In this document: positions 9,509-26,531 of the stretch, piece by piece
Layout of the letters: each line of letters opens with the position of its first letter
Numbering within the stretch: the first letter of the stretch is position 1
DNA from: Candidatus Multivorans sp.
GTDB taxonomy: Bacteria > Acidobacteriota > Thermoanaerobaculia > Multivoradales > Multivoraceae
Length of the DNA: 64,000 bases
NCBI GenBank assembly: GCA_965247095.1
Contig: OZ251997.1
Span: forward strand, 1,952,001-2,016,000
Direction of reading: 5' to 3'
Program-made: the position numbers and the translations under genes
The notes under the pieces: model-generated
Seen by the model: only the letters and a program-made list of their open reading frames with translations
The model's database searches: none
Told to the model about the DNA's origin: nothing

Positions 9509-9533
9509 TTGCAATGCAATCACAGCGTAGGCT
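9505..9533 (+). promoter_or_regulatory. Putative promoter and operator of the fitAB/vapBC pair
   Basis: TTGATT-17 bp-TAGGCT; perfect inverted repeat TGATTGCA-A-TGCAATCA (9506-9522), half-site similar to the FitA operator half-site TGATAGCA. Confidence 0.6.
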
Positions 9534-9565
9534 CACAGGAGCTTTGATCGGAGGGACAGAGAGCA

Positions 9566-9811: not shown

Positions 9812-10247
9812 ATCACCGGCCGCCGTCATCGTCGACACCAACGTCGTGTCGGAGTTGATGCGCAGCAGGCCGGAGGCCACGGTCATTGCTTGGCTGGACG
9901 ACCATTTCAGGCGCAATCTCTTCGTGACCGCCGTAACCGAAGCTGAGATCAGAGCCGGCATCGCCTATCTGCCTCAGGGCGAACGCCGGCGGCAACTCGC
10001 CCGAGCAGCCGAACGGGCCTTCGCCTCCCTGTTCGCCGGCCGCGTGCTGCCCTTCGACACGGAAGCGGCGCGCGCATATGCCGTGATCGCCGCTCGATGT
10101 CGTGAAGCTGGACGCCCGATCTCACAAGCCGACTGCCAGATCGCTGCAATCGCACGCACGCAAGACACGACCCTGGCAACGAGGAACGTTCGGGACTTCG
10201 AGCTGGCGGACGTGAAGGTCGTCGATCCATGGGCGTTCGCGGAGTGA
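9789..10247 (+). CDS. vapC: VapC/FitB PIN-domain toxin
   Basis: IVDTNVVSE, TEAEI, ADCQIAAIA, LATRNVRDF, VVDPW; start uncertain. Confidence 0.92.
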   Translation: MSHPVSTESPAAVIVDTNVVSELMRSRPEATVIAWLDDHFRRNLFVTAVTEAEIRAGIAYLPQGERRRQLARAAERAFASLFAGRVLPFDTEAARAYAVIAARCREAGRPISQADCQIAAIARTQDTTLATRNVRDFELADVKVVDPWAFAE

Positions 10248-11422: not shown

Positions 11423-11581
11423 GTCGCCGCCGGCCATGTCCTTCCGATGAACAAGACGCGGTTCCGACCAACTAGTTGCGCCAGGGCACCCCACTCGAAG
11501 CGACGACGTCTCTCTGGGTGCGCGGGCCTTCTGGCCCGCATCAAGTGCGAGGCCGCGAAGCGGCCGGCGCGAGTCGCCCCG

Positions 11582-11986
11582 CTAGGCCGAGACGAGCGAG
11601 TGCGCCAAGTCCCGCACTCGACGAGGGTTCCCATCCTCCGGCCGCCACCCTGCCGAAAGCAGGCCGGCGGGTGAACGACCGTCGAGCAGCGCCCGAGGGC
11701 GATCGAACCAACGCCGCACGCCGGTCTCGCTGTAGGCGCCCAAGAGATCGTCCACCACCAAGGCGAGGAAGCGCAGCCGCGCCGCCAAGTCATCCGGCAT
11801 CTCGCCGCCCTGCGACAGGTAGCGGTGCAGACTAGTCGATGAGACCCCAAGCAGACGGGCCAACAGTTCAACGCCAAGGAGACCGTTCAGTTCCTTTCCC
11901 TTAGACGATGCAGGCGACGAAACCATGCTGGAAACGTACTCCCAAAGGTCCCGCCCGGTCAAGGGGGTCGGCAGGATAGGGATCAT
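11582..11986 (-). CDS. Xre/MbcA/ParS-type antitoxin (HTH plus toxin-binding domain), no intact cognate toxin
   Basis: HTH LLARLLGVSSTSLHRY and C-terminal VRRWFDRPRALLDGRSPAGLL; no recognisable RES ORF downstream. Confidence 0.75.
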   Translation of the reverse strand: MIPILPTPLTGRDLWEYVSSMVSSPASSKGKELNGLLGVELLARLLGVSSTSLHRYLSQGGEMPDDLAARLRFLALVVDDLLGAYSETGVRRWFDRPRALLDGRSPAGLLSAGWRPEDGNPRRVRDLAHSLVSA

Positions 11987-12063
11987 TCAGGACCATTGAG
12001 GGCGACCGGTTCCGCCTACGGACTTAGCCCATCATGGAGAGTCAGTCCGCCGGGGCCAGGACG

Positions 12064-12097
12064 GACCCTAAGATGTCAAGATCGTCACTACCACTAA
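12064..12097 (+). pseudogene. higB: Remnant of the higB toxin 3' end
   Basis: GGA CCC TAA GAT GTC AAG ATC GTC -AC TAC CAC TAA reads GP*DVKIV(D)YH*, a decayed version of the HigB C-terminus (xVEIVDYH*), directly before the higA RBS. Confidence 0.6.
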
Positions 12098-12111
12098 GGA
12101 GGCCTACCGAG

Positions 12112-12417
12112 ATGACCGCCAGAAACGGCATGAGACCCGTACATCCCGGCGAGATTCTGCGTGAAGAACTGGACGAACTCGGTCTGTCGGCCAACGCACT
12201 GTCGAAGGCCCTGGGCGTGCCTGTGCATCGCCTCACGGCCATCCTTAACGGGCAGCGCGGGGTTACAGCGAACACCGCGCTGCGTCTGGCCCGCTACTTC
12301 GGCACGACGCCCGAGCTCTGGCTGAACCTCCAGAAGACGTGGGAGCTCCGCTGTGCCAAGATCGAAGCAGGCCGCCAGAGCGCCGATCAGATCGAGCCCC
12401 GGCCGACTGTTGCGTAG
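12112..12417 (+). CDS. higA: HigA family addiction-module antitoxin
   Basis: MRPVHPGEILREE, LTAILNGQRGVTANTALRLARYFGTTPELWLNLQ; RBS AAGGAGG. Confidence 0.93.
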   Translation: MTARNGMRPVHPGEILREELDELGLSANALSKALGVPVHRLTAILNGQRGVTANTALRLARYFGTTPELWLNLQKTWELRCAKIEAGRQSADQIEPRPTVA

Positions 12418-12446
12418 GGGAAAGGAGGAGGCTCTCCCTAGGTACA

Positions 12447-12490
12447 CAACACGGCTGCGTGTTGACTTTTCCGTGTATCACGGCTACGGT
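12447..12490 (+). promoter_or_regulatory. Putative promoter of the type I R-M operon with two palindromes
   Basis: TTGACT (12462)-17 bp-TACGGT (12485); ATG 8 nt later with no RBS (leaderless?); inverted repeats CAACACG-n4-CGTGTTG and CCGTG-n3-CACGG. Confidence 0.5.
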
Positions 12491-12498
12491 ACCCAGAC

Positions 12499-13107
12499 AT
12501 GGAGAGATTGATTGACGTGGCCCGAGTCAGCCAGGGTCTAGCCCGCTCGGGCCGCGGGGCCGGCAACCAGACCGGAAATTGGAAGCTCCGAGTTGTCGAG
12601 AGTGCCAACGTGGCCCATGACGGATGGCTCTGCCTCGAGGGTCTACCGGAAATCGAGGTCGCGCAGAACACCCGCACGGAGCGCCACCTGCTTCGGCCCT
12701 TTGATGTACTCGTCACGGCCCGCTCTCTGCACGCACACGTGGCGCTGGTCCCACCGATCGTCTCGCGGACCGTGGCCAGCATCACCCTGCTGGTCGTGCG
12801 CCCCAACCGCCCTGAGGCGGGCATGGGCCACTACCTCTACTACTACCTGAGTTCGACTTTCGGCCGGAGGCAAATCGCCAGGCACCTGACGGTCGGCACC
12901 AGGTTCCCACTGATCTCAGCCAGGAGCCTCGGAGAGATCCAGGTGCCGTTGCCGTCTGCACGAGAACTCGACCTGATTGCTCAACTTGTGGAGGCATCAG
13001 AGGCTGCCCACACTTCAGCAATCACAGCCGCCCGGCTACGCCGCGAATCGCTCCGCGACTCCATCATCCACACTATCGGCGCCAAGACGGCCTCGATTTC
13101 TCCATAG
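12499..13107 (+). CDS. Single-TRD (half) type I restriction specificity subunit-like protein
   Basis: LRPFDVLVTAR, YLYYYLSS, ISARSLGEIQVPLPS...IAQLV followed by a helical coiled coil, i.e. one HsdS repeat unit. Confidence 0.7.
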   Translation: MERLIDVARVSQGLARSGRGAGNQTGNWKLRVVESANVAHDGWLCLEGLPEIEVAQNTRTERHLLRPFDVLVTARSLHAHVALVPPIVSRTVASITLLVVRPNRPEAGMGHYLYYYLSSTFGRRQIARHLTVGTRFPLISARSLGEIQVPLPSARELDLIAQLVEASEAAHTSAITAARLRRESLRDSIIHTIGAKTASISP

Positions 13108-13115
13108 GACAGCGC

Positions 13116-14645
13116 ATGCCACTAACAAGCCAGGAACTCCAATCCAAGCTGTGGCAGGCCGCGGACATCCTCCGTGGCCAGATCGACGCCGCCGACTACA
13201 AGAACTACATCTTCTCAGTGCTGTTCCTGAAACGGCTCGCAGACCGATTCGACGAGGAGGTGGGGGCCGCCATCTCGGCAGGCGTACCGCACGACGCAGC
13301 GTTGACCGACGCCGACGAGCATGAGTTCTTCGTCCCGGCGTCCGCACGCTGGGCGGCGCTCACCGCGGCCTCGATGAATCTCGGCGAGGCGCTCAACGTC
13401 GCCGGCCAAGAAATTGAGGATGCGAACACACCCAGGCTGGACGGCGTACTGACGAACACGAACTGGAACGACGAGTCCAAACTCGGCAGCCCGGCCAACC
13501 GCGAACGCATCATCCGCAGCCTGTTGAACCACTTCGCTGCTCTCGATCTGCGCGACGCAAACCTGCGAGACCCGGACGGTGGCGTCGACAACGTGCTGGG
13601 CGATGCCTACGAGTACTTGATCAATCAGTTCGCCGACGACGCCGGCAAGAAAGGCGGCGAGTTCTACACGCCGCGCCCGATCGTGCAACTGATCGTCGAA
13701 CTGCTCCAGCCGAAAGAGGGAATGCGGATCTGCGACCCCACGGCGGGTTCGGGCGGCATGCTCATCTTCACCGCGCAGTTCGTGCAGAAGAACGGTGGCG
13801 ACCGGCGGAACCTCGTGCTCCATGGGCAAGAGCGCAACCTGGGAACACTCGCCGCAGGCAAGCTGAACCTCCTGCTCCACGGTCTGTCCGCGGCCAGGCT
13901 GGAGGCCGGCGACGTGATCGCAGAGCCCGGCCTAGTCGACTCCAAGGGCCGCCTGCTCTCGTATGATCGCGTGGTCGCCAATCCTCCCTTCAGCCTCAAG
14001 AACTGGGGTCACGACTTCGCGCCAAACGACCCACACCGCCGCTTCAACCGCTTCAAAGCGATCCCGCCGCGAACGAGGGGTGACCTAGGCTTCCTGCTCC
14101 ACATGCTGGCGGTGACCAATGCGAAGGGCATGGTGGGCGTGGTGATGCCCCACGGCATCCTGTTTCGTGGCGGGGCCGAAGGGAAGATCCGCCAGGGCAT
14201 CGTCGAGGCGGACCTCTTCGAAGCGATCATCGGATTGGCACCCAACCTCTTCTTCGGCGCCTCCATACCCGTGTCCATCTGCGTCCTGAACAAGGCGAAG
14301 CCGCCGGGCCGCCGAGGCAAGGTCTTGTTCGTGGACGCGGCGCAAGAGGGCTGCTTCCGGCAAGGAAAGGGCCAGAACTTCCTGGATCCCGAGCACATCG
14401 ACAAGATCGCCAAGGCGTACCACGCCTTTTCGGACATCGAACGGTTCGCCCATGTCGCCGACTTGGCCGAGATTGAGGCCAACGACTTCAACCTGAACAT
14501 CAGCCGCTACGTCGACACGACGGAAGTGGAGGAAGTGTTGAGTGTCGAGGAAGCGCTCACGCAGTTGCGGCACGCGGAGCAAGAGCGCGAAGAAGCCGTG
14601 GCAACGATGGATGGGCTGCTGAGGGAGCTGGGCTATGACCGATGA
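13116..14645 (+). CDS. hsdM: Type I R-M methyltransferase subunit M (m6A)
   Basis: LWQAADILRG, GEFYTPR, DPTAGSGGML, NPPF, PHGILFRG. Confidence 0.97.
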   Translation: MPLTSQELQSKLWQAADILRGQIDAADYKNYIFSVLFLKRLADRFDEEVGAAISAGVPHDAALTDADEHEFFVPASARWAALTAASMNLGEALNVAGQEIEDANTPRLDGVLTNTNWNDESKLGSPANRERIIRSLLNHFAALDLRDANLRDPDGGVDNVLGDAYEYLINQFADDAGKKGGEFYTPRPIVQLIVELLQPKEGMRICDPTAGSGGMLIFTAQFVQKNGGDRRNLVLHGQERNLGTLAAGKLNLLLHGLSAARLEAGDVIAEPGLVDSKGRLLSYDRVVANPPFSLKNWGHDFAPNDPHRRFNRFKAIPPRTRGDLGFLLHMLAVTNAKGMVGVVMPHGILFRGGAEGKIRQGIVEADLFEAIIGLAPNLFFGASIPVSICVLNKAKPPGRRGKVLFVDAAQEGCFRQGKGQNFLDPEHIDKIAKAYHAFSDIERFAHVADLAEIEANDFNLNISRYVDTTEVEEVLSVEEALTQLRHAEQEREEAVATMDGLLRELGYDR

Positions 14646-14690
14646 AGGGCAGCACCTAGGCGACGATCGGGCGATTCCCGAGGCGCGCGC

Positions 14691-15929
14691 ATGACGGAAC
14701 GAAGACCAGTCCCGGACGGCTGGAACCGGGTGCCGCTCAGTGCCGTTGCGACCGTAGTGATGGGCCAGTCGCCGCCCGGCAACACCGTGTCTGACCTCAG
14801 AGAAGCCACCCCTGAGGATGGTGGGCTGCCCTTCCTTCAAGGCAACGCTGAGTTCGGGCGCAGTTCCCCCGCTCCAACGAAGTGGTGCTACCGACCTGCC
14901 AAGGTGAGCGCCGCTGGGGACCTCCTGATCAGCGTGAGGGCACCTGTCGGCCATACGAATCGGGCTGACCAGCCACTCGCCATCGGCCGTGGCCTCGCCG
15001 CCGTTAGGTTCCTCCATGTGTCCCCGGATTTCGGATGGCATGCCGTGAATCGCGCGAAGAAAGCTCTCCAGCGGCTCGCGCAAGGCAGCACTTTCGGAGC
15101 TATCAACGGGAAAGAACTGCGTCAACTGACCTTTCCCCTCCCTCCCCTCCACGAACAACAAGCCATCGCTACGACGCTCAACGCCATCGATGAAGCGATC
15201 GGGCGAGCCGAGAACATCATCTCCGTCACTGAGAACCTGCTCGATGCCCTCCGCCAGGAACTCCTCACCCGCGGCCTCCCCGGCCGCCACACGGGGTGGC
15301 GAGAAGTACCGAAGCTCGGCACGATCCCCTGTTCTTGGAGAACCGCCAAGGTCGAGGATGTCGCCGAAATCGTGGGCGGAAGCACTCCGGCTAGAAGCAA
15401 GCCAGAGAATTGGGGTGGCGACATCCCATGGCTGACACCTTCGGAGATCTCTGAGAACACTGGAATGTACATTTCCCGTTCCCGCGAGAAACTCACGGCG
15501 GCCGGCCGTAGAACCGCCGGACTCTCACTCCTGCCCAAGGGATCCGTACTCCTCACGAGCCGGGCCACGATCGGGGCCACGGCTGTCGCGACGATGGCAA
15601 CCACAACGAACCAAGGCTTTCAGAACCTCGTACCGCGGGAACGCACAGACCCGCTGTGGCTCTACTACGAGATGACCCACAGCAAGCAGCGTCTGAAGGC
15701 ACTCGCTGCCGGCAGTACGTTTCGGGAAGTCTCCCGCAGAGCCGTCGCCACCCTCGACATTCCGTACCCTCCTTTGCAAGAGCAGAAAGCGATAGCCGGG
15801 GTCCTAAGTCGCGTCGACGGGGCGATCGAGCAGGCCGCGAATCAACTGCAAGCGATGGTCGGGCTGCGAACGGCGATGGCCGATGCACTGCTGACCGGCC
15901 GCCTTCGAGTCGTGAGCGCACGTGGCTAG
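14691..15929 (+). CDS. hsdS: Type I R-M specificity subunit S
   Basis: Two TRD repeats (GQSPP...; GGSTP...) each ending GSTF...PPLxEQxAI; RQELLT conserved region. Confidence 0.95.
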   Translation: MTERRPVPDGWNRVPLSAVATVVMGQSPPGNTVSDLREATPEDGGLPFLQGNAEFGRSSPAPTKWCYRPAKVSAAGDLLISVRAPVGHTNRADQPLAIGRGLAAVRFLHVSPDFGWHAVNRAKKALQRLAQGSTFGAINGKELRQLTFPLPPLHEQQAIATTLNAIDEAIGRAENIISVTENLLDALRQELLTRGLPGRHTGWREVPKLGTIPCSWRTAKVEDVAEIVGGSTPARSKPENWGGDIPWLTPSEISENTGMYISRSREKLTAAGRRTAGLSLLPKGSVLLTSRATIGATAVATMATTTNQGFQNLVPRERTDPLWLYYEMTHSKQRLKALAAGSTFREVSRRAVATLDIPYPPLQEQKAIAGVLSRVDGAIEQAANQLQAMVGLRTAMADALLTGRLRVVSARG

Positions 15930-16905
15930 GCCCACCCGATCCACGTCCATGGCAAAGTGTGCTGAGTCCGCCCTTCTTGCAGCGATCGACGTCTACAACA
16001 AGCCCTTGGCCGAGCACCGGGAGCAGACTCTCGCGTTGCTCCTCATCAACGCCTGGGAGGTCCTGCTCAAGGCCCGCGTACTGCAGCTCAACGACAACAA
16101 GCTGCCTTCAATCTACCAACGCCAGAAGGGGTCGCGTCGCTACCGGCGCACCCGGACGGGTGAACCCTGGACAATCGATATCTGGGATGCGCTCAATAGG
16201 GTCGCCGCGCCCCAGCCGATTCGCTCGAACCTTGACGGCCTGAACCTGGTCCGAAACCAAGCCGCGCACGAAGGCCTTCTAGCGAACCCACTAAAGCGGA
16301 GTGTTCTCGACTACGGGACGGCGGCTGTTCAGAACTTCGCCCACTACGCCGAGTCCTGGTTCGAACTCACTGTGCGAGTCCCCTACCTGCTTCCGATCGG
16401 CTTTCTCGGTGCCGCTGCGGCTGCGGGGCCGCCTCCGAACCAGAGCCAAAGACAGCTACTCAGAAATCTCAAAGAGATCGCATCGGACCATGGGGACCCA
16501 GATTCGCAGTACGCAGTCACCATTAGACTCAGGATCGAGCTGAATCCCGGATTCTCAGGCGGCGGCAGCATCGGCCCAACCACCGACCCCCTTGCCCCCA
16601 AAGTGCGGTTGTCGGACGATCAAGCGCTTGAGATATTCCCCGCCACCTACGGGCAAATCCTTGAGGAGTGCAGGACGCGTTACCCGCAGTTCAAGCAGAA
16701 CAGGCGCTTCAACCACGCGATGAAGGCGGTGAAGGAGGATCCTGAATGCGCCTACAAACGCAAACTTGATCCTCGACAAAAGGGCGGCACCGAACGGACA
16801 TTCTACAATTCATGCACGACCCTGGCGCGCCTCGACCGTGAGTATCGAACACACGCCGCGAAGACGGGACGAGCCGTACAGATGAACAAGGGGACGCCGC
16901 GGTGA
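15922..16905 (+). CDS. DUF3644-like protein with HEPN-type RxxxxH motif (putative RNase effector)
   Basis: ALLAAIDVYNKP...LLINAWEVLLKA N-terminus; RNQAAH motif; lies between hsdS and hsdR. Confidence 0.7.
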   Translation: MARPTRSTSMAKCAESALLAAIDVYNKPLAEHREQTLALLLINAWEVLLKARVLQLNDNKLPSIYQRQKGSRRYRRTRTGEPWTIDIWDALNRVAAPQPIRSNLDGLNLVRNQAAHEGLLANPLKRSVLDYGTAAVQNFAHYAESWFELTVRVPYLLPIGFLGAAAAAGPPPNQSQRQLLRNLKEIASDHGDPDSQYAVTIRLRIELNPGFSGGGSIGPTTDPLAPKVRLSDDQALEIFPATYGQILEECRTRYPQFKQNRRFNHAMKAVKEDPECAYKRKLDPRQKGGTERTFYNSCTTLARLDREYRTHAAKTGRAVQMNKGTPR

Positions 16906-17765
16906 CCACGAAGCGAATAGCCCTCACATTCGAGGGGCCCGACGTCAATGAACGCGGCGTTCCTCTGGACGACCTCCAAAGAGCGCTAGGGCACGTTCAA
17001 CGGGCGCTGGAACTCACCGTGCGGCACCTGGCGGGCCTCCACGAGGCCGATCCGCTGCCGGAGGCCCTCAAGGCCCAGTGCGAGCTCAGGGTGGTGGGCA
17101 TCTACCGAGGTTCTCTGACCGTGGAACTGGAACTGAAGTCGGAGGGGGCTCTGCCACCGGACTCCGACGACCTCGGCGCTCAAGCCCTCAATGCCGTCCT
17201 GAACTGGTGCAGTGGCGGAGCCCAGGGTGGCACGCGCCTGCAACCGGCCGCGGCCGCGGAGCTTGCCGCAGTCCGCGAGGACGTGTCGTCGAACCTGACC
17301 GCCGTGAAACTCGAGGGGATGTCGCTCCCTCCTTCTTCCGGTCCGAAGCGCCCCCTGCCGCCACGGACCGCAGAATCGAGACCGAACGGAGAGAAGCTCA
17401 AGGCACACCTGCATGGAACCCTCTCGGAGGTCGACTGGGGGCGCCGTACTGCCCGGCTTCGCCAACACGGCGGCACGCCCGTGCCACTCAGCTTTGGAGC
17501 GGACCTCGACGAGGACATGCTGCGGCTGGCAACGCAGTACGTTGAGGTAGAGGGCGAGGGTTGTATCGAGGCGGACGACGAACGGTGGACGAGCGTCGAC
17601 GTCAGGAGGATTACGGGGACGCGATCCTGCTTTGAACCCTTCGATCTCGGAGAGCTGGATGGGAGAGCAGGCTTCGTATTCGGGCGTGACGCGAGCGTCA
17701 CGGTGAGCGATCCCTACGACCACGATGAGTTCATGCTCGTCATCCGGGAAGCGCGGGGAGCGTAG
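16902..17765 (+). CDS. Hypothetical protein, putative antitoxin/sensor partner of the downstream PIN toxin
   Basis: 287 aa; OB-fold-like C-terminal region (HGTLSEVD...VEVEGEG) and acidic VapB-like terminal helix (DHDEFMLVIREAR); stop abuts the PIN start. Confidence 0.65.
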   Translation: MTTKRIALTFEGPDVNERGVPLDDLQRALGHVQRALELTVRHLAGLHEADPLPEALKAQCELRVVGIYRGSLTVELELKSEGALPPDSDDLGAQALNAVLNWCSGGAQGGTRLQPAAAAELAAVREDVSSNLTAVKLEGMSLPPSSGPKRPLPPRTAESRPNGEKLKAHLHGTLSEVDWGRRTARLRQHGGTPVPLSFGADLDEDMLRLATQYVEVEGEGCIEADDERWTSVDVRRITGTRSCFEPFDLGELDGRAGFVFGRDASVTVSDPYDHDEFMLVIREARGA

Positions 17766-18175
17766 TGGATGCCAAGGGCCAGACGAACGCCGTGCTCGAC
17801 ACCAGTGTCGTCTCCATACTGTTCGGCGACACCAGCAAATCTCCGCTCTACAGCAAGGAACTTGTTGGCCTTAGAGGGGTCATCTCGTTCCAGACGTTGG
17901 AAGAAGTGTGGTTCGGAGCGTTCTTGGCAGGCTGGGGAACGCGCCGAAGAGCCGAACTGGCGGCACACCTGAACCAGTACCTCGTGATCTGGCCCAATCC
18001 AGCCCTCGTTGATCGATGCGCTCGCCTCCGTACGGCGAGGCGCGCCGCCGGGAAGGAGCTGAGTACTGCTGACGCATGGATCGCCGCCACCGCCATCATG
18101 CTGGGGTGCCCATTGGCGTCGGACGACGGCGACTTCGACCGCATACCAGGGCTTGAAGTGATCCGGATCGAATGA
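17765..18175 (+). CDS. PIN-domain (VapC-like) nuclease
   Basis: VLDTSVVS, QTLEE, ADAWIAATA, LASDDGDF. Confidence 0.9.
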   Translation: MDAKGQTNAVLDTSVVSILFGDTSKSPLYSKELVGLRGVISFQTLEEVWFGAFLAGWGTRRRAELAAHLNQYLVIWPNPALVDRCARLRTARRAAGKELSTADAWIAATAIMLGCPLASDDGDFDRIPGLEVIRIE

Positions 18176-21100
18176 CCCGCATCGACAACTTCAACGAGTT
18201 CACGCAAGCCGAAGACCCTGCCCGCAGGTTGCTTGAGCGGCTCGGTTGGACCTATGTGCCTCCGGATGCGCTGGCTCAGGAGCGCAGCGACTACGGGCAG
18301 GTACTACTGAAAGCGCGACTACAAGCCGCATTGAGGCGGTTGAACGAGTGGATGTCCGAGGATCAGGCGGCCCGCGTCATCTTCGAGCTGGAGCACATCG
18401 ATGCCGTCGGCATGGGGCGCAACCAGAGAGTCCATGAGTACTTGACCTACGGCATGCCGCTCAACGTCGACGGTTCGAGCGGGCAGCGCTCCCGTGTCGT
18501 ACGCTTCTTCGACTTCGACCGACCCGAAGGCGGCTTGAACGACTTCGTCGTCACAACTCAGTTCCGGGCCCACCGCGGCGTCAGACCCGGCGAGGCCGGA
18601 GCGGGGAAGCGGGTCGTCATACCGGATCTGGTGCTGTTCGTGAACGGCATCCCCGTGGTGGTCATGGAGGCGAAGTCACCGACGCTCTTTGGCGAGTGGA
18701 AGGCCAAGGCTGTGGACCAGCTTCGCCGCTACCAGGAGGCCGATCCGGAGTGGCGCGGAACGGGCGCCCCCGCGCTCTTCCACTACAACCTCCTCTGCGT
18801 CGCCCACTGCGGCGCCGCAGCGGCCTACGCGCCCCTCGGCGCACCCGAGAACGCCTACCGCGAATGGAAGTCCGTCCTGCCGTTCACCGAGGACGAGGTT
18901 CGGCATCGTTTCGGCTGCGAACCGTCCGGCCAGGCCCAACTCATCGTCGGGATCCTCAAGCCCGTGACCCTGCTCGACATCCTCCGCGACTACGTCGTCT
19001 ACGAACCGGAGCGCGGCCGGCTGGTCAAGAAACTGCCCCGCTACCAGCAGTTTCGCGCCGTCGGGGCGGCGCTGACGCGCATCGCGGAAGGCCGGCGGCC
19101 CGAACAGCGTGGCGGCGTCGTCTGGCACACACAGGGGTCGGGCAAGTCGCTGACCATGCTCTGGTTGGCGACCAAACTGCGTCGCGACGCGCGTTTGTCC
19201 AACCCGACCATCGCGATCGTGACCGATAGGCGGCAACTCGACCGCCAGATTGCGGGCACGTTCGAACGCTGTGGTTTCCCCGCACCGGAGCGCGCAGTCA
19301 ACACAGCGGACCTGCGCCGGCTGCTCACCGCCGGACCGGGGCGCACCGTGCTGAGCACGATCCAGAAATTCGAGGACGCATTGGAAGCCGCCGAAGGTGA
19401 ACTCGACGCGCTCGACTCGTCCGGGAACGTCATCGTCATGGTGGACGAGGCGCATCGGACCCAGTACGGAATCTTGGGGGCTCGATTGTCGAAGGCTCTT
19501 CCCAATGCGGCACTCATCGGCTTCACGGGCACGCCCATCGACAAGGGGTTCCGGCGCAGCACGATGCGGCGTTTCGGCGCCCTCATCGACTCCTACACGA
19601 TTCCCCAGTCGGTGGCCGACGGCGCCACGGTGCCGATCCTCTACGAGGCGCGGCTACCCGAGTTGGCCGTCGAGGGCGCGGGAACGCTCGACCGCCTCTT
19701 CGACGCCCTGTTCGGCGACGAGACTCAGGAGGCTCAGGTTCGGATACGCAGGCGCTACGCCAACAAGGAAACCGTGGCCACCGCGGATCGACGCATCGAG
19801 ATGGTCGCCCTAGACATCGCAGAACACTTCAAGGACAGAGTGCGGCCGAATGGCTTCAAGGCGCAGGTCGTGGCGCCGAGCCGGGCGGCTGCTCTGCGCT
19901 ACGCAAAGCACCTGAGCGGCTTCGGCGTAAGCGCCTACCCCATCATCACGACCGGACCGAACGACGGAGCCGAATTCCAGGCAGCACGCGAACTCGACCA
20001 GGAACAGATCACGAACGCCTTCGTCGACCCTGAGGGAGAACCGGAGATTCTTGCCGTGGTGGACATGCTCCTGACCGGCTTCGACGCGCCCGTCGAGCAG
20101 GTGCTCTATCTGGACCGCTCACTCCGTGAACACGGCCTGCTGCAGGCCATAGCCCGGGTGAACCGTCGATTCTCGCACGCGAAGAACGGCGTTCCCACCG
20201 AGAAGGAGTACGGCCTGGTCGTGGACTATCACGGCGTGTCGGGAAATCTGGAACAAGTCCTATCGACATTCGACTGGCAGGATGTTCAGCAAGCATTGGA
20301 GCAGATCGAGGACGATCCCGCGCCCTCCATCGACGCAGCCGCCGTCCAGGCTGAATCGCACTTCGAGGGCCGGAGCCTGAGCGACACGTGGGCCTGCGTC
20401 AGCGTGTTCGCGCCCGACGCCGAAACGGAAGGTAACTACAAGGCCGACCTGTTCGAGCGGTTCAACACGGACTACCGCCTGTTCTCACGGCTGATGGACC
20501 GCTTCCTACCTGATCCCCGGGCGCTCGACTACACCGACCGTCTCGCGCGCCTGACAGAGATTCGCGCCTACGTGCGCGCTCAGTTCCTTCGCGAGGATGC
20601 CGACGTGAACTGGACCGACATCGGCGCCAAGGTCAAGAAATTGATCGACGAGCGGATCAGCGCCGAAGTCCGACGGCTGATGAAGCCAGTCTCGATCCTC
20701 GACAGCGACTTTGATGAGAAGGTTGCATCCCTGCCCAACGAGGAAGCGCGCGCATCCTTGATGGAACACGCGATCCGGGCGCAACTGCACGAGCGGCTCC
20801 ACGACAATCCGGCCTACTTCGGGAAGCTCTCGGAGCAACTCGAGCTGATCATCGAAGACCTCCGCAACCGATTGATCGACTCGGCTGAGGCCAGCAAGCG
20901 ATTTGCCGAACTCAGGCAGCAGATTCGGAGCGAAACTGACATAGCAGGACATTACGGGCTCTCCCCCGTCTCCTTTGCCATCTATGAGTTGCTGGACGGC
21001 GACCCGGCGAACAATTCCGGAACAGGACATGGTCAGACCCTCCACGAAGCTCGGAGCGTCGTGCCCGACTGGCTGTCGCGGGACAAGACCAGTCCCCGAC

Positions 21101-21315
21101 TGGACCAGGAGATGAAGAGCGTCGCGTCGCTGCTCGACGCCGTCCTGAAAGCCCACACCACCGTTATCGACTGGCAATCCAACCTCGAAGTCCAGCGCGA
21201 AATGCGGCGAGACATCAAGCGGCAACTGCGGAAGACCGGGGCCCGCCCCGACGACCAACTCGACAAGCTGGCAAACCAGATCGTCGAAGTGGCGAGACGG
21301 CGGTACACGATGTGA
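18172..21315 (+). CDS. hsdR: Type I R-M restriction subunit R
   Basis: PDLVLFVNGIPVVVMEAK nuclease motif, HTQGSGKS, DEAHR, GFTGTP, MLLTGFD, QAIARVNR. Confidence 0.97.
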   Translation: MTRIDNFNEFTQAEDPARRLLERLGWTYVPPDALAQERSDYGQVLLKARLQAALRRLNEWMSEDQAARVIFELEHIDAVGMGRNQRVHEYLTYGMPLNVDGSSGQRSRVVRFFDFDRPEGGLNDFVVTTQFRAHRGVRPGEAGAGKRVVIPDLVLFVNGIPVVVMEAKSPTLFGEWKAKAVDQLRRYQEADPEWRGTGAPALFHYNLLCVAHCGAAAAYAPLGAPENAYREWKSVLPFTEDEVRHRFGCEPSGQAQLIVGILKPVTLLDILRDYVVYEPERGRLVKKLPRYQQFRAVGAALTRIAEGRRPEQRGGVVWHTQGSGKSLTMLWLATKLRRDARLSNPTIAIVTDRRQLDRQIAGTFERCGFPAPERAVNTADLRRLLTAGPGRTVLSTIQKFEDALEAAEGELDALDSSGNVIVMVDEAHRTQYGILGARLSKALPNAALIGFTGTPIDKGFRRSTMRRFGALIDSYTIPQSVADGATVPILYEARLPELAVEGAGTLDRLFDALFGDETQEAQVRIRRRYANKETVATADRRIEMVALDIAEHFKDRVRPNGFKAQVVAPSRAAALRYAKHLSGFGVSAYPIITTGPNDGAEFQAARELDQEQITNAFVDPEGEPEILAVVDMLLTGFDAPVEQVLYLDRSLREHGLLQAIARVNRRFSHAKNGVPTEKEYGLVVDYHGVSGNLEQVLSTFDWQDVQQALEQIEDDPAPSIDAAAVQAESHFEGRSLSDTWACVSVFAPDAETEGNYKADLFERFNTDYRLFSRLMDRFLPDPRALDYTDRLARLTEIRAYVRAQFLREDADVNWTDIGAKVKKLIDERISAEVRRLMKPVSILDSDFDEKVASLPNEEARASLMEHAIRAQLHERLHDNPAYFGKLSEQLELIIEDLRNRLIDSAEASKRFAELRQQIRSETDIAGHYGLSPVSFAIYELLDGDPANNSGTGHGQTLHEARSVVPDWLSRDKTSPRLDQEMKSVASLLDAVLKAHTTVIDWQSNLEVQREMRRDIKRQLRKTGARPDDQLDKLANQIVEVARRRYTM

Positions 21316-22040
21316 CCTCGCGCGACGAAGTCCGCTTCGGCGAGACCACGATCGAGTACCAGGTGCGGCGGAGCCAGCGCCGTCGGAAGACGGTCCAGAT
21401 CACAGTCGACGGCAACGGCGTGCATGTCACCGCCCCCGCAACTACGCCGGACCGCGAACTGCGCTCCATTGTCCGTAAACGAGCTGCCTGGATAGTCCGG
21501 CATGCTCACGGCGCACCCCTCTCCGTCCCCCAGAAGCGCTTCGTCAGCGGCGAGACGCTCCCCTACCTGGGCCGCAACGTCCGCATGGTCTTTGAGTCAG
21601 CGAAGACTCGGCGCGCCCTGCTCCGGTTCGACCACTGGCGCTTCCGCATCACAGTACCGGAAGGCCTATCCGACCAACAGCGCTATCAGCGAATCCGCCA
21701 CGTCGTCATCGATTGGTACCGCAACCGGGCTGCACAGCGCCTACCCGAAACCGTCGACCGCTGGTGGCCACAACTCGGACGCGGCGACCGCCCGCAGATA
21801 CTGATCCGGGACCAGCGCCGCCGCTGGGGAAGCTGCGCCGCCGACGGCACCCTGCGCTTCAACTGGCGGGCCATGATGCTGGAGCCTTCGCTCATCGACT
21901 ACATCGTGGTCCATGAGTTGGCCCACCTGACGATCAGGAATCACTCGGAGGCGTTCTGGGCATTGGTGTACGACGCGATGCCGGACTCACAGGTCCGGCG
22001 CCGGCGGCTTCGAGAGGCAGGGTGCTCGCTGCCCCTCTAG
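21312..22040 (+). CDS. YgjP/SprT-like (DUF45) zinc metallopeptidase-fold protein
   Basis: QRRRWGSC, LRFNW, YIVVHELAHL...NHS; usual position after hsdR. Confidence 0.9.
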   Translation: MTSRDEVRFGETTIEYQVRRSQRRRKTVQITVDGNGVHVTAPATTPDRELRSIVRKRAAWIVRHAHGAPLSVPQKRFVSGETLPYLGRNVRMVFESAKTRRALLRFDHWRFRITVPEGLSDQQRYQRIRHVVIDWYRNRAAQRLPETVDRWWPQLGRGDRPQILIRDQRRRWGSCAADGTLRFNWRAMMLEPSLIDYIVVHELAHLTIRNHSEAFWALVYDAMPDSQVRRRRLREAGCSLPL

Positions 22041-22165
22041 CCATCATCGGGATATCGGCTTGTCCGCCTGCTCCGTTCGACACCCAGACTGACGTCAGCG
22101 GCCGGCGCGGTGGGTCGCAGCACGATTCGAGGACTCGGAACCGACTCCGACGCTCGCCCATCACT

Positions 22166-22236
22166 ACACAACCTGTTGTGCCAGACCAACCTTAAAACCA
22201 CTACATGTTGACACCGCGGCAAACCTGGGACACCAT
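22166..22236 (+). promoter_or_regulatory. Tandem NrdR-box-like operators overlapping a sigma70-type promoter
   Basis: ACACAACCTGTTGTGC (22166-22181) and CCACTACATGTTGACA (22198-22213), 32 bp start to start; NrdR consensus acaCwAtATaTwGtgt; box 2 overlaps TTGACA (22208-22213)-17 bp-CACCAT. Confidence 0.65.
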
Positions 22237-22337
22237 TTGCGGCTCCCCGGCCCGCGAACGACGAACGACTCTCACTGACTCGTCCGATGCCGCTCGTAAA
22301 GGCTGAACTACAAGACGAGAACCAGGAGGAAACCACG

Positions 22338-22535
22338 ATGCCCAAGAAGACGAGCGGACTCAGACCCGGCCAGAAGGCCCCTGTTTCCGGTCAGTTCCAG
22401 AGGATCGGCCCCCGAGGCGGCAAGGGCCCAGAGGTCACTGCGGTCAAAGGCAAGCCGTTACCGCCCAACCCGAAGAGTGGCAGCACGTACACGCTCGCCG
22501 ACCCCACCAACAATGACTCGGGACGGCGAAGATGA
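22338..22535 (+). CDS. YjzC-like small protein
   Basis: RPGQKAPVSGQF...GPRGG...EVTAVKGKPLPP motif; RBS AGGAGG. Confidence 0.75.
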   Translation: MPKKTSGLRPGQKAPVSGQFQRIGPRGGKGPEVTAVKGKPLPPNPKSGSTYTLADPTNNDSGRRR

Positions 22536-22551
22536 ACGGAGGAATACAGCC

Positions 22552-23322
22552 ATGAGATTTTCCCACTACAGCCTCGGCCACAAGCAGGCCGGGGAAGTCG
22601 TCGAAGTCAACCTCTCCGGCAACGCTGCCAACGTGCGACTCCTGGACAGCGCGAACTTCTCCAACTACAAGAACGGCCGGCGACACAAATTCTATGGCGG
22701 TCTAGCGAAGAAGTCTCCGGTGCATCTCCCAATCCCACACTCCGGCACTTGGCACGTCACGGTAGACATGACGGGGCTGCGCGGCAGCACTCGCTCAGGC
22801 GTCCGGATGATGCCCAGGCCACTTGCGCCAATCAAAGAACCATCGCTTTCGTCGGTGCCTTCGCTCGTACGTGATCAACCACCCGAAGTGGACCAATCCG
22901 GCGACGCCTTCGATGTCTTCATCTCGCACGCGTCCGATGACAAGGATGACGTCGTGCGTCCGCTCGCGAGCGCACTGAAGGAGAAGGGTCTTCGTGTCTG
23001 GTACGACGAATTCGAGTTACAGATCGGATCCAGTCTAAGGCAGACGATCGACCGGGGCATCGCGCGGAGTCGGTTCGGCGTGGTGGTACTCTCTGGCCCG
23101 TTCTTCGAGAAGGGCTGGCCAGCCTACGAGCTCGACGGGCTCGTGACGCAAACCGTCAGTGGCCAACAAGTCCTTTTGCCGATCTGGCACGGTGTCACAA
23201 AGCAACAAGTGATGGACTTTAGTCCCTCGCTCGCCGACAAGCTTGCGCGGAGCACGGCGACTCACACCGTGGCCGAGATCGCGGCTGAAATCGCGACGGT
23301 CGTACAGGACCGAGGGTTCTGA
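22552..23322 (+). CDS. DUF1883-TIR domain fusion protein
   Basis: N-terminal ANVRLLDSANFSNYKNGR...IPHSGTWHV (DUF1883-like); TIR motifs DVFISHASDDK, VWYDEF, WPAYEL (catalytic Glu), LLPIWH; RBS GGAGG. Confidence 0.88.
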   Translation: MRFSHYSLGHKQAGEVVEVNLSGNAANVRLLDSANFSNYKNGRRHKFYGGLAKKSPVHLPIPHSGTWHVTVDMTGLRGSTRSGVRMMPRPLAPIKEPSLSSVPSLVRDQPPEVDQSGDAFDVFISHASDDKDDVVRPLASALKEKGLRVWYDEFELQIGSSLRQTIDRGIARSRFGVVVLSGPFFEKGWPAYELDGLVTQTVSGQQVLLPIWHGVTKQQVMDFSPSLADKLARSTATHTVAEIAAEIATVVQDRGF

Positions 23323-23444
23323 GCCCTTGCCTCCACTGTTCCGCCCGAGAGAACCGCCGCTGTGCGTGCCACCCATGGCATAACGCCACCTGCCGTCACT
23401 GGCCCAACCCGCACCCAACGGACAGAGTATGACCAGGAGACGGA

Positions 23445-24176
23445 ATGGACAAGGTAGCCCTCGTCGTCGGCGCCGGCGACTACATCGGATCGGCGATCGC
23501 CAAGCGCTTCGCCAAGGGCGGCTTCACGATCGTGGCCGGGCGGCGGAACGGCGACAAGCTGCAGCCTCTCATCGAGGAGATCGAGTCTTCCGGCGGCCGC
23601 TGCTACGGCTACTCACTCGACGCCCGGCAGGAGGAGCAGATTACAGGCCGGTTCGCCCAGGTCGAGCGGGACATCGGACCGATCGAGGTCTGCGTCTTCA
23701 ACGTCGGCGGCAACGTCCGGTTCCCGATTCTCGACACGACGACCCGGGTGTTCACCAAGGTCTGGCAGATGGCCTGCCTGGCCGGGTTCCTGGCCGGCCG
23801 GGAGGCGGCGAAGTACATGGTCCCGCGCCAACGCGGAGCGATCTTCTTCACCGGCGCCACCGCGAGCATGCGCGGCGGCAGCGGCTTCTCGGCCTTTGCG
23901 GCCGGCAAGTTCGGGCTGCGGGCGGTGGCGCAGAGCATGGCCCGGGAACTCGGGCCGAAGAACATCCATGTCGCACACCTAGTCATCGACGCCGGTGTCG
24001 ACACGGAGTGGGTGCGCGGCATGATCGCCCGCGGCGGCCGCGATCCGGACGAACTGCCGCCGGACACCCTGATGAACCCCGCTTCCGTCGGCGAGGCGTA
24101 CTGGCAGCTCTACAACCAGAGCCGCGACGCCTGGACCTTCGAGCTCGATCTCAGGCCCTTCCGGGAGAGCTGGTGA
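23445..24176 (+). CDS. SDR family NAD(P)-dependent oxidoreductase
   Basis: VVGAGDYIG, FTGATAS, FAAGKFGLR, HVAHLVIDA. Confidence 0.9.
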   Translation: MDKVALVVGAGDYIGSAIAKRFAKGGFTIVAGRRNGDKLQPLIEEIESSGGRCYGYSLDARQEEQITGRFAQVERDIGPIEVCVFNVGGNVRFPILDTTTRVFTKVWQMACLAGFLAGREAAKYMVPRQRGAIFFTGATASMRGGSGFSAFAAGKFGLRAVAQSMARELGPKNIHVAHLVIDAGVDTEWVRGMIARGGRDPDELPPDTLMNPASVGEAYWQLYNQSRDAWTFELDLRPFRESW

Positions 24177-25027
24177 TGGCCGCGATCGACACCGGCACGA
24201 ACGAACTGCTGTGCGACCTGGAGGACGGCGTCGCCACGGTGACGCTGAACAAGCCGGAGAAGCGCAACGCCCTCGGCGACATCCTGACCCCGGCACTGCG
24301 GAGCATCCTGCTGGAGCTCGAAGCGGATCGGCGCTGTGGCGCGATCCTGCTCACCGGCGCCGGCAAAGCGTTCTGCGCCGGCGGCGACGTGTCGGGAATG
24401 GGGTCGAACCGCGGCAAGGGCAACGGCACCCGCGCCGGCAGCAGCGACACCCCGAGCGAACCGCCCAGCCATGACCAGGCCGTCCGTAACCTGATCGAGA
24501 AGCAGGAGTCGCTGACTCTTCGCATGGCGGAACTGGACAAACCGATCGTGGCCGCCCTGCCCGGCCCGGCCGCGGGCGCAGGGCTATCGATCGCGCTCGC
24601 CGCCGACCTGCGGATCATGGCCGACGACACCTTCGTCACCACCGCCTTCCGCCGTATCGGCCTGTCCGGCGACTACGGCTCGAGCTGGTTCCTGACCCGT
24701 CTGGTCGGACCGGCGGTGGCCAAGGAGCTGCTGATGACCGGCCGGCGCATCCCGGCCGAGGAGTGCCTGCGCCTGGGGATCGTGAACCGGATCGTGCCGT
24801 TCGACGACCTGGCCGCGGAGGGGAGGAACCTGGCACTGGAGCTGGCGAACGGCCCCAGGAACGCGCTCCGGTTGATGAAGGAGAACGTGAACCGGGCCGT
24901 GCTCGGCGATCTGCGCGCGTGTCTGGCCGGCGAAGCCGAGGGCATGGTCGCGTCGGTGCGGACGGCCGACCACAGGGAGGCGGTGCGGGCGTTCATGGAG
25001 AAAAGGGAGCCGCGGTTCGGGGGGTGA
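24176..25027 (+). CDS. Enoyl-CoA hydratase/isomerase family protein
   Basis: TLNKPEKRNAL, AFCAGGD, AAGAGLSIALAADLR, HREAVRAFMEKR. Confidence 0.9.
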   Translation: MAAIDTGTNELLCDLEDGVATVTLNKPEKRNALGDILTPALRSILLELEADRRCGAILLTGAGKAFCAGGDVSGMGSNRGKGNGTRAGSSDTPSEPPSHDQAVRNLIEKQESLTLRMAELDKPIVAALPGPAAGAGLSIALAADLRIMADDTFVTTAFRRIGLSGDYGSSWFLTRLVGPAVAKELLMTGRRIPAEECLRLGIVNRIVPFDDLAAEGRNLALELANGPRNALRLMKENVNRAVLGDLRACLAGEAEGMVASVRTADHREAVRAFMEKREPRFGG

Positions 25028-25028
25028 C

Positions 25029-26531
25029 TCAGTCTCCGTCGACGACGCTGGACCGGATCCCGCTGCCCGGCAGGGCGCCTTCGACCAGTTCGCCGTCCCG
25101 CACCACAAACACCCCGTCGACGAGGACGTGGGGAATCCCCGCCGAGGGCACGGCCGGCTCGGCGAAGGTGGCCCGGTCGGCCACGGTCTCCGGGTCGAAG
25201 ACGGTGATGTCCGCGTCCGCGCCGACCGCTACCCGGCCCTTCTTCGCCATCGCCGGCGCCACCGCTTCGAGGCGCTGAGCCGGCGCCAGGGTCATCTTGC
25301 GGATCGCCTCCATCAGGCTGAGCCGTCTCTGGTCCCGTACGTAACGTCCCAGCACGCGCGCGAACGTTCCGGCGCCGCGGGGGTGGGCGCGGCCGTCGAT
25401 GTAGCCGACGCCGTCGCTCGCGATCATCACCTCGGGGTGCGCGATCGCGTCCCCGAGTTCCTGCTCGGGGATGATGTGGGCGATGACGATCGCGGGCGCC
25501 GTGTCCGGAGTTTCCATTCGCCGGTGCATGAAGGCCGCTTCATCCAGCCGTTCGCCGGTGGCGACCCATTCGATGTCGCGGTAGTTCGCGCCCATGCGCT
25601 CGCGCCAGCCCGGGTCGAAGATGGCCGAGCGGATATCCGTCGACGCGGCGGTGTATGGATAGACCTCGGTCGTCACGTCGATCCCGGCCGAGGCGGCATT
25701 GCTGATCATGTCGATGACCACGGGCATCTGCTCCAGCCCGGTCGAGCCGATGTGGACGATGTGAACCGAGCCGCCCGAGCCCGCGGCGTCGGCGATCATC
25801 TCCTGGACCGCGGAGATCGCGCTCTCCGGCTCCTTCATCCCCGCGTAGCGGATATGGGCGAAGACGGTCACGCCGGCTTCCGCCGCGGTCTGGAACATGC
25901 GGAAGATCTCGGTGCGCGAGGCGCCGGGCTGGTACTGGAGCGGCAAACCGACTCCGAGAGCGCCGTCGGCGAGCCCCTCCCGCAGCGTTTCCTGAATGGC
26001 TTCGATCCGCTCGGGACTCGCCTCCTCGTTTCGCGCGGCCTGCTCGTCTTCGCCGAATGCCAGCACCCGCGCTGCCCCGTACGCCGTTGTGGCGCCGAAG
26101 TGGATGCGCCAGGAACCCTCGCGCTCCGCGTACCACTCGTCGACCGGGAACGCTCCCCCTTCGAGCTCGAAAGCGGCGGTCACGCCGTCGCGCACCTGCA
26201 GGTCGCGGCTGAAGGGATCATGGCCGTGGGCATGCAGATCGATGAACCCGGGCGCCACGACCAGGCCCGAAACATCGATCACTTCCGAACCACTCAAGGG
26301 CTCGGCCGAGATCGCCGCGATCGCCGCCCCGCTGACGCCGACGTCCATCACCGCGTCCAGGCTCGATTCCGGATCCATGACCCGGCCGCCGCGAAGCACG
26401 ACGTCGTACAGAACCGGCTCGGGCGCGCAGGCGATCAGCAGGAGGACCGCGAGCGGAAGTGCTGCAACCGCCCAACGCCCGGAGGCCGGCGCCGCGCGCC
26501 GAATGCACACAGTCCGCTGCTCAGACTGCAT
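25029..26531 (-). CDS. Amidohydrolase of the D-aminoacylase / N-acyl-D-amino-acid deacylase family, lipoprotein
   Basis: APGFIDLHAH, IASDG, HPRGAGTFARVLG, GADADITVFDP; lipobox LLIAC. Confidence 0.85.
   Translation of the reverse strand: MQSEQRTVCIRRAAPASGRWAVAALPLAVLLLIACAPEPVLYDVVLRGGRVMDPESSLDAVMDVGVSGAAIAAISAEPLSGSEVIDVSGLVVAPGFIDLHAHGHDPFSRDLQVRDGVTAAFELEGGAFPVDEWYAEREGSWRIHFGATTAYGAARVLAFGEDEQAARNEEASPERIEAIQETLREGLADGALGVGLPLQYQPGASRTEIFRMFQTAAEAGVTVFAHIRYAGMKEPESAISAVQEMIADAAGSGGSVHIVHIGSTGLEQMPVVIDMISNAASAGIDVTTEVYPYTAASTDIRSAIFDPGWRERMGANYRDIEWVATGERLDEAAFMHRRMETPDTAPAIVIAHIIPEQELGDAIAHPEVMIASDGVGYIDGRAHPRGAGTFARVLGRYVRDQRRLSLMEAIRKMTLAPAQRLEAVAPAMAKKGRVAVGADADITVFDPETVADRATFAEPAVPSAGIPHVLVDGVFVVRDGELVEGALPGSGIRSSVVDGD

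Follow-up and report, generated by a model that had tools for sequence, protein, structure and literature searches.

A predicted NrdR operator ahead of a YjzC-family gene and a DUF1883-TIR gene in a variable defence hot spot of Candidatus Multivorans

NrdR is a sensor-repressor of the deoxynucleotide pool. When dATP rises, a tetramer loaded with dATP and ATP binds two boxes in a promoter and represses it (PMC9110341; dissociation constants are tabulated in PMC12051234), and the ATP-only form does not bind DNA (PMC9110341). The usual spacer between the boxes is 15-16 bp (PMC12051234), and a mutational study describes C4 and G13 as critical, A6 and T11 as important and an A/T content of at least 63% between C4 and G13 (PMC13584703). 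In the nrdDG promoter of Streptococcus pneumoniae, box 2 takes in the -35 element (PMC12051234). Outside the ribonucleotide reductase (RNR) genes, topA of Pseudomonas aeruginosa is the one documented target that we found, with a single, activating box (PMC4409342). Here we describe a pair of such boxes in a 64,000-nt stretch of a Candidatus Multivorans sp. genome (GCA_965247095.1, contig OZ251997.1; G000:C1:1952001-2016000, called the window below), where they stand before the gene of a 65-aa YjzC-family protein and the gene of a DUF1883-TIR protein. The genome is a single contig of 4.62 Mb with 67.7% GC. Like the NrdR operators of RNR promoters (S. coelicolor nrdRJ, L. monocytogenes nrdDG, E. 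coli nrdHIEF), the pair has two partly palindromic 16-bp boxes, a spacer of 15-16 bp, the C4/A6/T11/G13 positions, an A/T-rich centre and an overlap with promoter-like elements, and nrdR is present in the genome. Unlike them, it is followed by YjzC-like and DUF1883-TIR genes on an acquired island and not by an RNR gene, the nearest of which is 1.7 Mb away.

From the sequence evidence assembled below, NrdR very probably binds this predicted operator and probably also controls the operon behind it. The whole explanation, in which the tie would run primarily through the YjzC-family gene with the TIR gene as cargo, stands in our judgement evenly poised between right and wrong.

The operator and its rank in the genome

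Box 1 (ACACAACCTGTTGTGC) lies at 22166..22181 and box 2 (CCACTACATGTTGACA) at 22198..22213, with a start-to-start distance of 32 bp; the 16-bp spacer that separates them (22182..22197) falls within the published 15-16 bp (PMC12051234). No strand is assigned to the boxes or the spacer. Box 1 keeps C4, A6, T11 and G13 and has A/T at five of the eight bases between C4 and G13; box 2 keeps C4, A6, A8, T9, T11 and G13, has A/T at six of the eight, and is a near-match to box B of nrdJ in close relatives, for example CCACTACATATTGGAC. Both boxes have the composition that the mutational study describes (PMC13584703). On the plus strand, a -35-like hexamer TTGACA lies within box 2 (22207..22212) and, 17 bp past it, a weak -10-like hexamer CACCAT (22230..22235), which agrees with TATAAT at three of six positions; together they may serve as the promoter, in the geometry known from S. 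pneumoniae nrdDG. The operator is located 124-172 bp 5' of the ATG of the YjzC-like gene. An earlier sequence-only reading of this DNA, made by a model without database searches, had reported the motif pair with its coordinates and 32-bp distance, the TTGACA in box 2, the CACCAT after 17 bp and matches of 12/16 for box 1 and 10/16 for box 2 to the consensus that it quoted, all of which we reproduced. In related strains represented in runs X5 and X7 the promoter region is about 98% identical, and a 1-base deletion at 22194 in the X5 contig would give a spacer of 15 bp, which is still allowed.

The background against which the boxes were scored comes from the nrdJ loci of relatives in the genus and the order: 37 of 41 genomes gave a match, and 30 loci were kept. 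Tandem NrdR-type boxes 31-32 bp apart stand 5' of nrdJ in 29 of these 30 loci; L129, which has no convincing pair, was dropped. A symmetrised position weight matrix (PWM) built from 31 unique boxes of these promoters was scanned over 4,617,194 genome positions. Box 2 scores 15.1 bits and ranks 14th, and box 1 scores 14.0 bits and ranks 26th; positions scoring at least 14.0 bits number 26 in all, two of which are these boxes. Pair scores were taken as the sum of two boxes of at least 5 bits each, for all spacings between 10 and 60 bp. Across all these spacings the pair of this locus is the best in the genome (29.09), ahead of the nrdJ operator (27.63), a pair between topA and dprA (25.29) and a pair before pyrR (22.98), and all four are spaced by 32 bp. 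When the genome's own nrdJ boxes were left out of the PWM the locus was still first, with 29.14. At spacings 31-33, the expected number of pairs of such quality is 4.4e-4 per genome. Thus, in the comparison of a PWM from nrd promoters with the genomic background that the sequence-only reading had proposed, both boxes lie far above background and the pair is the top one.

The genome also encodes the regulator itself, whose absence would have counted against that reading. The nrdR open reading frame (ORF) is intact and its product scores 193.8 bits on TIGR00244, for a cut-off of 124.65, and keeps D15, R17 and the RRRR motif. The sole RNR catalytic gene is the class II gene nrdJ, and its distance of 1.7 Mb agrees with the earlier statement that no nrd gene is nearby. 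A second ATP-cone protein, considered as an NrdR-like sensor or an RNR, was rejected, as it is a phosphoglycerate-mutase-like protein.

The nrdJ and pyrR pairs, two of the four top pairs, are real regulon members. In the genome's own nrdJ operator (G000:C1:3683171-3683218, L106) the C and G of box B are 9 and not 8 bp apart, G13 being missing and G14 present, and the box scores 11.3 bits; such an exception in one box is tolerated according to the mutational study (PMC13584703). The pair before pyrR, in the pyrR-pyrB operon, has its boxes at 32-bp spacing at G000:C1:1461687-1461734, 80 bp upstream of the gene, and is kept at -80 in 29 of 30 loci of the same genus (L221-L250). This suggests that pyrimidine synthesis is part of the NrdR regulon of this genus. 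As a separate observation, the topA/dprA pair lies between convergent genes (topA on the plus strand, dprA on the minus strand), in the 117-bp gap between their stop codons (G000:C1:3749341-3749388; L220, 1042-1089).

The two genes, their families and their island

The YjzC-family gene occupies 22338..22535 on the plus strand, as assigned from its ORF, its homologues and its atlas placement, and it has an AGGAGG ribosome-binding site at 22324..22329, 8 nt ahead of the ATG at 22338. Its GC at codon position 3 (0.76) is of the coding type. The DUF1883-TIR gene (256 aa, 22552..23322, plus strand) starts after a gap of 16 bp with its own Shine-Dalgarno sequence, GGAGGAA at 22538..22544, and no terminator-like site was called between the two genes on the plus strand. 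A 272-nt metatranscriptome contig (run X14) covers 22319-22589, which takes in all of the YjzC gene and runs into the TIR gene. Since it could also stem from DNA carry-over, it is weak evidence for a joint transcript; the two genes are presumably co-transcribed. Minus-strand ORFs across the operator (22037-22345 and 21934-22164) were rejected as genes, their GC being flat over the codon positions.

By itself, the 65-aa protein does not reach the gathering score of Pfam YjzC (PF14168), with 14 bits for a cut-off of 25 and an E-value of 0.065. Its placement in the family comes from its homologues: 10 of 23 homologue clusters (63-81% identity) carry PF14168, a protein atlas puts it with YjzC clusters (score 0.93, 29 of 30 matches in YjzC sets), and the homologous module lies above the PF14168 cut-off in P0146 and P0210. 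It is basic and rich in Gly and Pro. The AlphaFold2 model is a small sheet of three beta strands with a mean pLDDT of 75.8, and a fold search with it against the PDB gave no match at E <= 0.001. The 65-aa protein shows neither a helix-turn-helix (HTH) nor any other DNA-binding domain; such domains occur in fused relatives only. We found no literature on the function of YjzC.

The family at large gives more information. Among the longer YjzC-bearing proteins, 32 of 89 have an N-terminal HTH of XRE/HigA type and the YjzC module at the C-terminus, and other fusions join it to MazE_antitoxin (MazE-type) or Xre_MbcA_ParS_C (ParS/MbcA toxin-binding antitoxin) domains. Because these 32 of 89 proteins join the module to DNA-binding domains of antitoxin type, YjzC may be an antitoxin-like partner module. 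One further protein, P0144 (273 aa), consists of about five tandem YjzC-like repeats. The YjzC-like loci collected, 80 from metagenomes and 9 from viral contigs, leave 80 unique sequences when L082, L096 and L138 are added. A scan of gene neighbours covered 125 of 144 picked ORFs, the remaining 19 belonging to loci whose layout duplicates that of a neighbour. Peptidase_S8 is found upstream in 18 loci, Multi_ubiq downstream in 10 (once with Prok-E2) and ThsB_TIR downstream in 3; further neighbours are SMODS, ApeA-HEPN, integrases, XRE/M78 pairs, a HigB-like toxin (L217) and, once, a class II RNR. YjzC genes are thus mostly in defence-type company.

Two of these arrangements may be of interest in their own right. 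In a recurrent layout, a large Peptidase_S8 gene ends about 30 bp before the YjzC-like gene, which is followed by variable cargo, namely Multi_ubiq with or without Prok-E2 at 10 loci and ThsB_TIR at 3 (L143, L145, L156, L167, L173-L176, L185, L189, L204, L206-L208, L210, L212, L213 and others); Peptidase_S8 and YjzC may form an undescribed conserved pair flanking a cargo slot. At L191 (55-2186), the gene of a class II RNR that has a TSCPD domain is followed on the same strand, 300 bp downstream, by a YjzC-like gene, and no NrdR pair was seen in the gap between the two.

The association of YjzC with DUF1883 is seen from both sides. A YjzC-like neighbour is present in 2 of the 80 DUF1883-TIR loci described below (L082, L096), and in 4 of the 80 metagenome YjzC loci (L151, L144, L198, L199) a DUF1883 gene lies directly upstream on the same strand, full DUF1883-TIR at L151 and stand-alone DUF1883 of 92-116 aa at the other three. 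In P0016, the first 40 YjzC residues run, in a changed frame, into a DUF1883-TIR protein that is 79% identical to that of the window, and a close relative therefore has the same gene order. The sequence-only reading had proposed YjzC as a partner or inhibitor of the TIR protein. Gene adjacency and the antitoxin-type fusions agree with this indirectly, and YjzC could bind the DUF1883-TIR protein as a partner or act as its antitoxin, a proposal that we would place slightly short of an even call.

In the DUF1883-TIR protein, Pfam recognises DUF1883 (E 8.5e-34) in residues 1-89 and the TIR domain (TIR_2 2.5e-19, TIR 1.2e-14) in residues ~119-252. Glu193 (codon 23128-23130), the catalytic residue in the YELDG motif, is shared by all 17 of the homologues aligned, and the earlier statement that the TIR domain keeps its catalytic Glu is therefore right. 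PADLOC assigns PDC-S66 with an E-value of 7.4e-67, over profile positions 141-281 of 282 only, which is the TIR part, and its ThsB profiles match the same part (4.6e-37). A scan of 12 neighbouring proteins did not find a ThsA-type domain, the partner that would make the locus a Thoeris system. The best PDB profile match is AbTIR (8g83, E 3.8e-61), and the DUF1883 part matches 2b1y (E 4.2e-21). This is a very large family (7347 matches among 8000 scored). Within one class sample DUF1883 is rare, being found in one of 351 genomes, the genome on which the search was centred. The identity between phyla (Bacteroidota, Cyanobacteria, Planctomycetota, Pseudomonadota) is 62-68%, with a mean column identity of 69% (n=17), which is unusually high for a defence-type gene. 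A preprint gives high defence scores to the DUF1883-TIR clade (10.64898/2026.10.06.757174). The clade is thus known and defence-associated, and it is uncharacterised. The TIR protein, of an AbTir-like NADase type, is likely a toxic or effector cargo accompanied by YjzC; it may have NADase activity and an anti-phage role.

The gene pair ends a type I restriction-modification (R-M) island. The R-M operon (13116-22040) comprises hsdM, hsdS, three inserted genes, hsdR and a YgjP-like gene. Next come a non-coding stretch of 297 bp, the 65-aa gene, the DUF1883-TIR gene and then a host-like SDR gene. The two downstream genes and the R-M system alongside are as the sequence-only reading had them, ORFs and Pfam agreeing. 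The genes inserted between hsdS and hsdR (15922-18175) encode a DUF3644 protein, which matches the PADLOC candidate PDC-S19 (6.9e-68), a 287-aa protein without any family match and a PIN-domain protein. No Rfam family was matched in 11000-24000 and no tRNA was found in 9000-26000.

The 41 further genomes examined in the genus all lack the DNA of the module, and no full-length homologue was found in 8 same-genus genomes or in the other genomes of a 401-genome phylum sample. The GC content of the island is below that of its flanks, and its GC at third codon positions is below that of a host gene. The flanks are syntenic in relatives and the interval between the YgjP-like gene and the SDR gene varies: about 23 kb in G441, about 5 kb in G442 and almost nothing in G323 and G419. 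The insert of the close relative G441 (L260-L261, G441:C1:2162700-2187200) holds a BREX system (BrxC, PglX, BrxHI, PglZ, BrxA) with IetA/IetS embedded. Because G441 carries BREX and Iet there, the site is a defence-island hot spot in the genus. The module is thus horizontally acquired and sits in a variable defence hot spot beside type I R-M. In the cargo that relatives have at the same site, the PWM scan gave no pair above 7.2 at spacings 31-33, and the G441 island has one pair of 18.1 at 30 bp. At the left edge of the island, window positions 11482-11583 hold a repeat of about 60-100 bp that is scattered in tens of copies, at 83-95% identity, in G323, G419, G441 and G442. It is not a tRNA, has no Rfam match and looks like a REP/MITE-like element.

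Recurrence of the operator and competing explanations

Among the 80 other unique YjzC loci, two have a strong operator at most 300 bp upstream of the gene. The first (L161, and the identical L164 from another metagenome) has two perfect-core boxes 32 bp apart with a score of 36.1, at -107 from the ATG and just past a terminator, and its surroundings (XRE/M78, primase-type and TraG-like genes) are those of an element resembling an integrative and conjugative element (ICE). The second (L269, identical to L270) has boxes 31 bp apart with a score of 25.8, at -87 from the ATG. Its YjzC gene is monocistronic, has its own terminator and lies on the opposite strand between phage portal and large-terminase genes, as a typical moron. 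At L160 there is one strong box (16.6). As a control, scanning at 25 off-phase spacings produced a single match in total, and across about 750 kb of fetched loci no other pair exceeds 17.7. With the window, three independent mobile contexts put a YjzC-family gene behind an NrdR operator, and one of the three has a TIR gene.

Since none of 80 TIR loci has the pair, while TIR-free YjzC genes carry operators, the link to NrdR seems to be that of YjzC and not of TIR: the co-option appears to concern YjzC, with the TIR gene riding in the operon. In this proposed mechanism, the dATP+ATP-loaded NrdR tetramer would shut the promoter in growing cells with adequate dATP, keeping the operon low. When dATP falls relative to ATP, through heavy DNA synthesis, RNR inhibition or phage replication, NrdR would pass to its ATP-only form and both genes would be transcribed. 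The YjzC-family gene would be the primary unit tied to NrdR and an antitoxin-type partner, and the TIR gene the cargo that it accompanies. The operator thus suggests that a shortage of DNA precursors turns the module on. The motif statistics, the nrdR gene, the gene content, the recurring operator, the gene neighbourhoods and the fused domains are observed; binding, repression and derepression by NrdR, as well as the interaction of YjzC with DUF1883, are steps that we infer. That the purpose of the module is phage defence triggered by a drain of deoxynucleoside triphosphates (dNTPs) is, in our opinion, doubtful.

Several observations weigh against this explanation. The PWM is independent of this locus but not of the generic consensus, because its training boxes were chosen by best consensus match. 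A strict sigma-70 scan called 0 promoters at the operator, because CACCAT agrees with the -10 consensus at three of six positions only, and the leader from box 2 to the ATG is 124 nt long. In the 80 DUF1883-TIR loci taken from named genomes (L026-L105; 496,700 bases), a consensus pair at most 300 bp 5' of the gene was found in 0 of 80, and the PWM scan of the same bases gave three weak pairs (at most 17.5), none of them within 650 bp 5' of a TIR gene. The operator is likewise absent from 78 of the 80 YjzC loci and from the other loci that join YjzC to DUF1883-TIR (L082, L096, L151). Because it is absent from those TIR and YjzC loci, it is not a defining part of the module. Moreover, the co-induction of a toxin and its presumed antitoxin leaves the activation of the effector unexplained, and NrdR is treated as RNR-specific in the literature. 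The YjzC gene of L138 has no operator near it either. In about 45 of the 80 YjzC loci a co-directional ORF, often Peptidase_S8, ends at most 70 bp upstream (by a crude ORF test that mis-flags L269), so that their promoters would be outside the scanned DNA.

A first alternative is that the wiring exists for the sake of the TIR effector, phage-induced dNTP imbalance derepressing an abortive-infection NADase through NrdR, with YjzC as an accessory. This is close to what the sequence-only reading had proposed, a host nucleotide-pool sensor co-opted for a TIR effector. Part of that proposal stands: the operator is real by the PWM, nrdR is present and the module lies in a defence hot spot. The protein also belongs to an AbTir-like, defence-associated clade, as PDC-S66 over the TIR part, the AbTIR match in the PDB and the preprint (10.64898/2026.10.06.757174) indicate, and NrdR leaves DNA at low dATP (PMC9110341). 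The expected conservation of the motif pair 5' of DUF1883-TIR homologues was not seen, as no one of the 80 TIR loci carries it, and the operators recur with TIR-free YjzC genes at L161/L164 and L269/L270. TIR defence proteins are, besides, mostly controlled after translation. We regard this alternative as unlikely.

A second alternative takes the operator as functional but as a matter of mobile-element housekeeping, in which YjzC, on phages, ICE-like elements and islands, would be tied to the replication and dNTP state of the host and could be, for instance, a small regulator or an antitoxin-like factor, and the TIR gene would be a co-transcribed neighbour. The phage moron L269/L270, which has an operator and a terminator to itself and lacks an effector gene, the company of XRE/M78, primase-type and TraG-like genes at L161, the position of the L191 gene 300 bp behind the gene of a class II RNR and the control of pyrR by NrdR boxes in the genus are all consistent with it. 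It fits less well with the fact that YjzC repeatedly adjoins DUF1883 genes in both gene orders, with the read-through of YjzC into a TIR gene in P0016 and with YjzC neighbours that are mostly of defence type (ThsB_TIR, SMODS, ApeA, Multi_ubiq/E2). We regard it, too, as unlikely.

That the boxes are a chance or decaying resemblance, unoccupied by NrdR in the cell, seems highly improbable. The weak -10 and the lack of a promoter by the strict scan, the lack of conservation of the site over the TIR family and the occurrence of partnerless single high-scoring sites elsewhere in the genome can be cited for it, but the 4.4e-4 pairs expected per genome argue against it, as do a score 6 bits above all 46 control spacings (best pair 22.92) and a spacing identical to that of the three other top pairs. 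Nor is the non-coding stretch (22083-22427) more diverged than the coding part in X7, with 7 differences in 345 bases for 48 in 963 of coding sequence; the X5 counts are 12 in 532 for 16 in 894. Finally, binding here and at pyrR by another regulator of CACAAC-N4-GTTGTG-type palindromes instead of NrdR is extremely improbable: box 1 here and pyrR box 1 do share CACAA..TTGTG arms, which are fixed across the genus at pyrR, with a variable, GC-richer centre, and pyrR box 1 reaches only 6.1 on the nrdJ-derived PWM, but both sites pair their box 1 at 32 bp with a near-perfect nrdJ-type box (15.1 and 16.9 bits), box 1 here keeps C4, A6, T11 and G13, and the module contains no candidate regulator gene.

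A broader proposal can also be made. YjzC may be a widespread, unrecognised class of antitoxin-like partners for DUF1883 and other effectors, which some mobile elements would have placed under the NrdR of the host. The dATP/ATP sensor would then switch on an abortive-infection module with a TIR NADase under infection or replication stress. For the first time, a housekeeping repressor of the nucleotide pool would have been recruited for immune sensing, and YjzC and DUF1883 would gain a first function. We offer this proposal as a speculation with little probability of being correct in full.

Comparison with known systems

What would be new here is that a known sensor-repressor and a known type of operator are wired to a new class of targets, with leads on two families of unknown function. 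If NrdR binds, mobile elements would read the dNTP status of their host through a universal sensor, and nucleotide-pool sensing would have a testable link to TIR-based immunity. A phage and an ICE-like element show this wiring again, and the best NrdR operator of the genome stands before accessory genes in a defence hot spot. If the explanation is true, it would provide first functional handles on YjzC, as a candidate antitoxin-like partner, and on DUF1883, and ideas for NrdR-directed antimicrobials would reach beyond the RNR genes. We found no link of NrdR to the control of a defence gene in the literature searched, which did not take in the supplementary box-pair lists of PMC12051234, PMC13584703 and PMC9110341, where non-RNR sites could be present.

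Like topA of P. aeruginosa, the locus would be a non-RNR target of the NrdR type. Unlike topA, a core replication-related gene, it has a full tandem operator with the geometry of a repressor site, and the genes behind it are accessory. With the AbTir-like DUF1883-TIR clade and PDC-S66 it shares its architecture and the catalytic Glu, and it differs from the other members examined in its operator, which is present in 0 of 80 of them, and in its YjzC neighbour, present in 2 of 80. The arrangement is also reminiscent of type II toxin-antitoxin pairs such as HigBA, a small gene standing 16 bp ahead of the gene of a potentially toxic enzyme on the same strand, and elsewhere the YjzC module is fused to HigA-type HTH, MazE-type and ParS/MbcA-type parts. 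Unlike the antitoxins of such pairs, the 65-aa protein lacks a DNA-binding domain and cannot autoregulate the operon; repression would come from the NrdR of the host.

Dedicated transcription factors control several defence systems, such as CapH/CapP with CBASS and regulators of the BrxR/WYL type, and other defences, such as dCTP deaminase and dGTPase, deplete dNTPs. The locus resembles these in that immune transcription would be gated by stress, or in that dNTP pools would be a battleground with phages. In contrast to CapH/CapP and BrxR/WYL-type factors, its regulator would not be carried by the system; it would be a conserved nucleotide sensor of the housekeeping kind, with its gene at another place in the chromosome.

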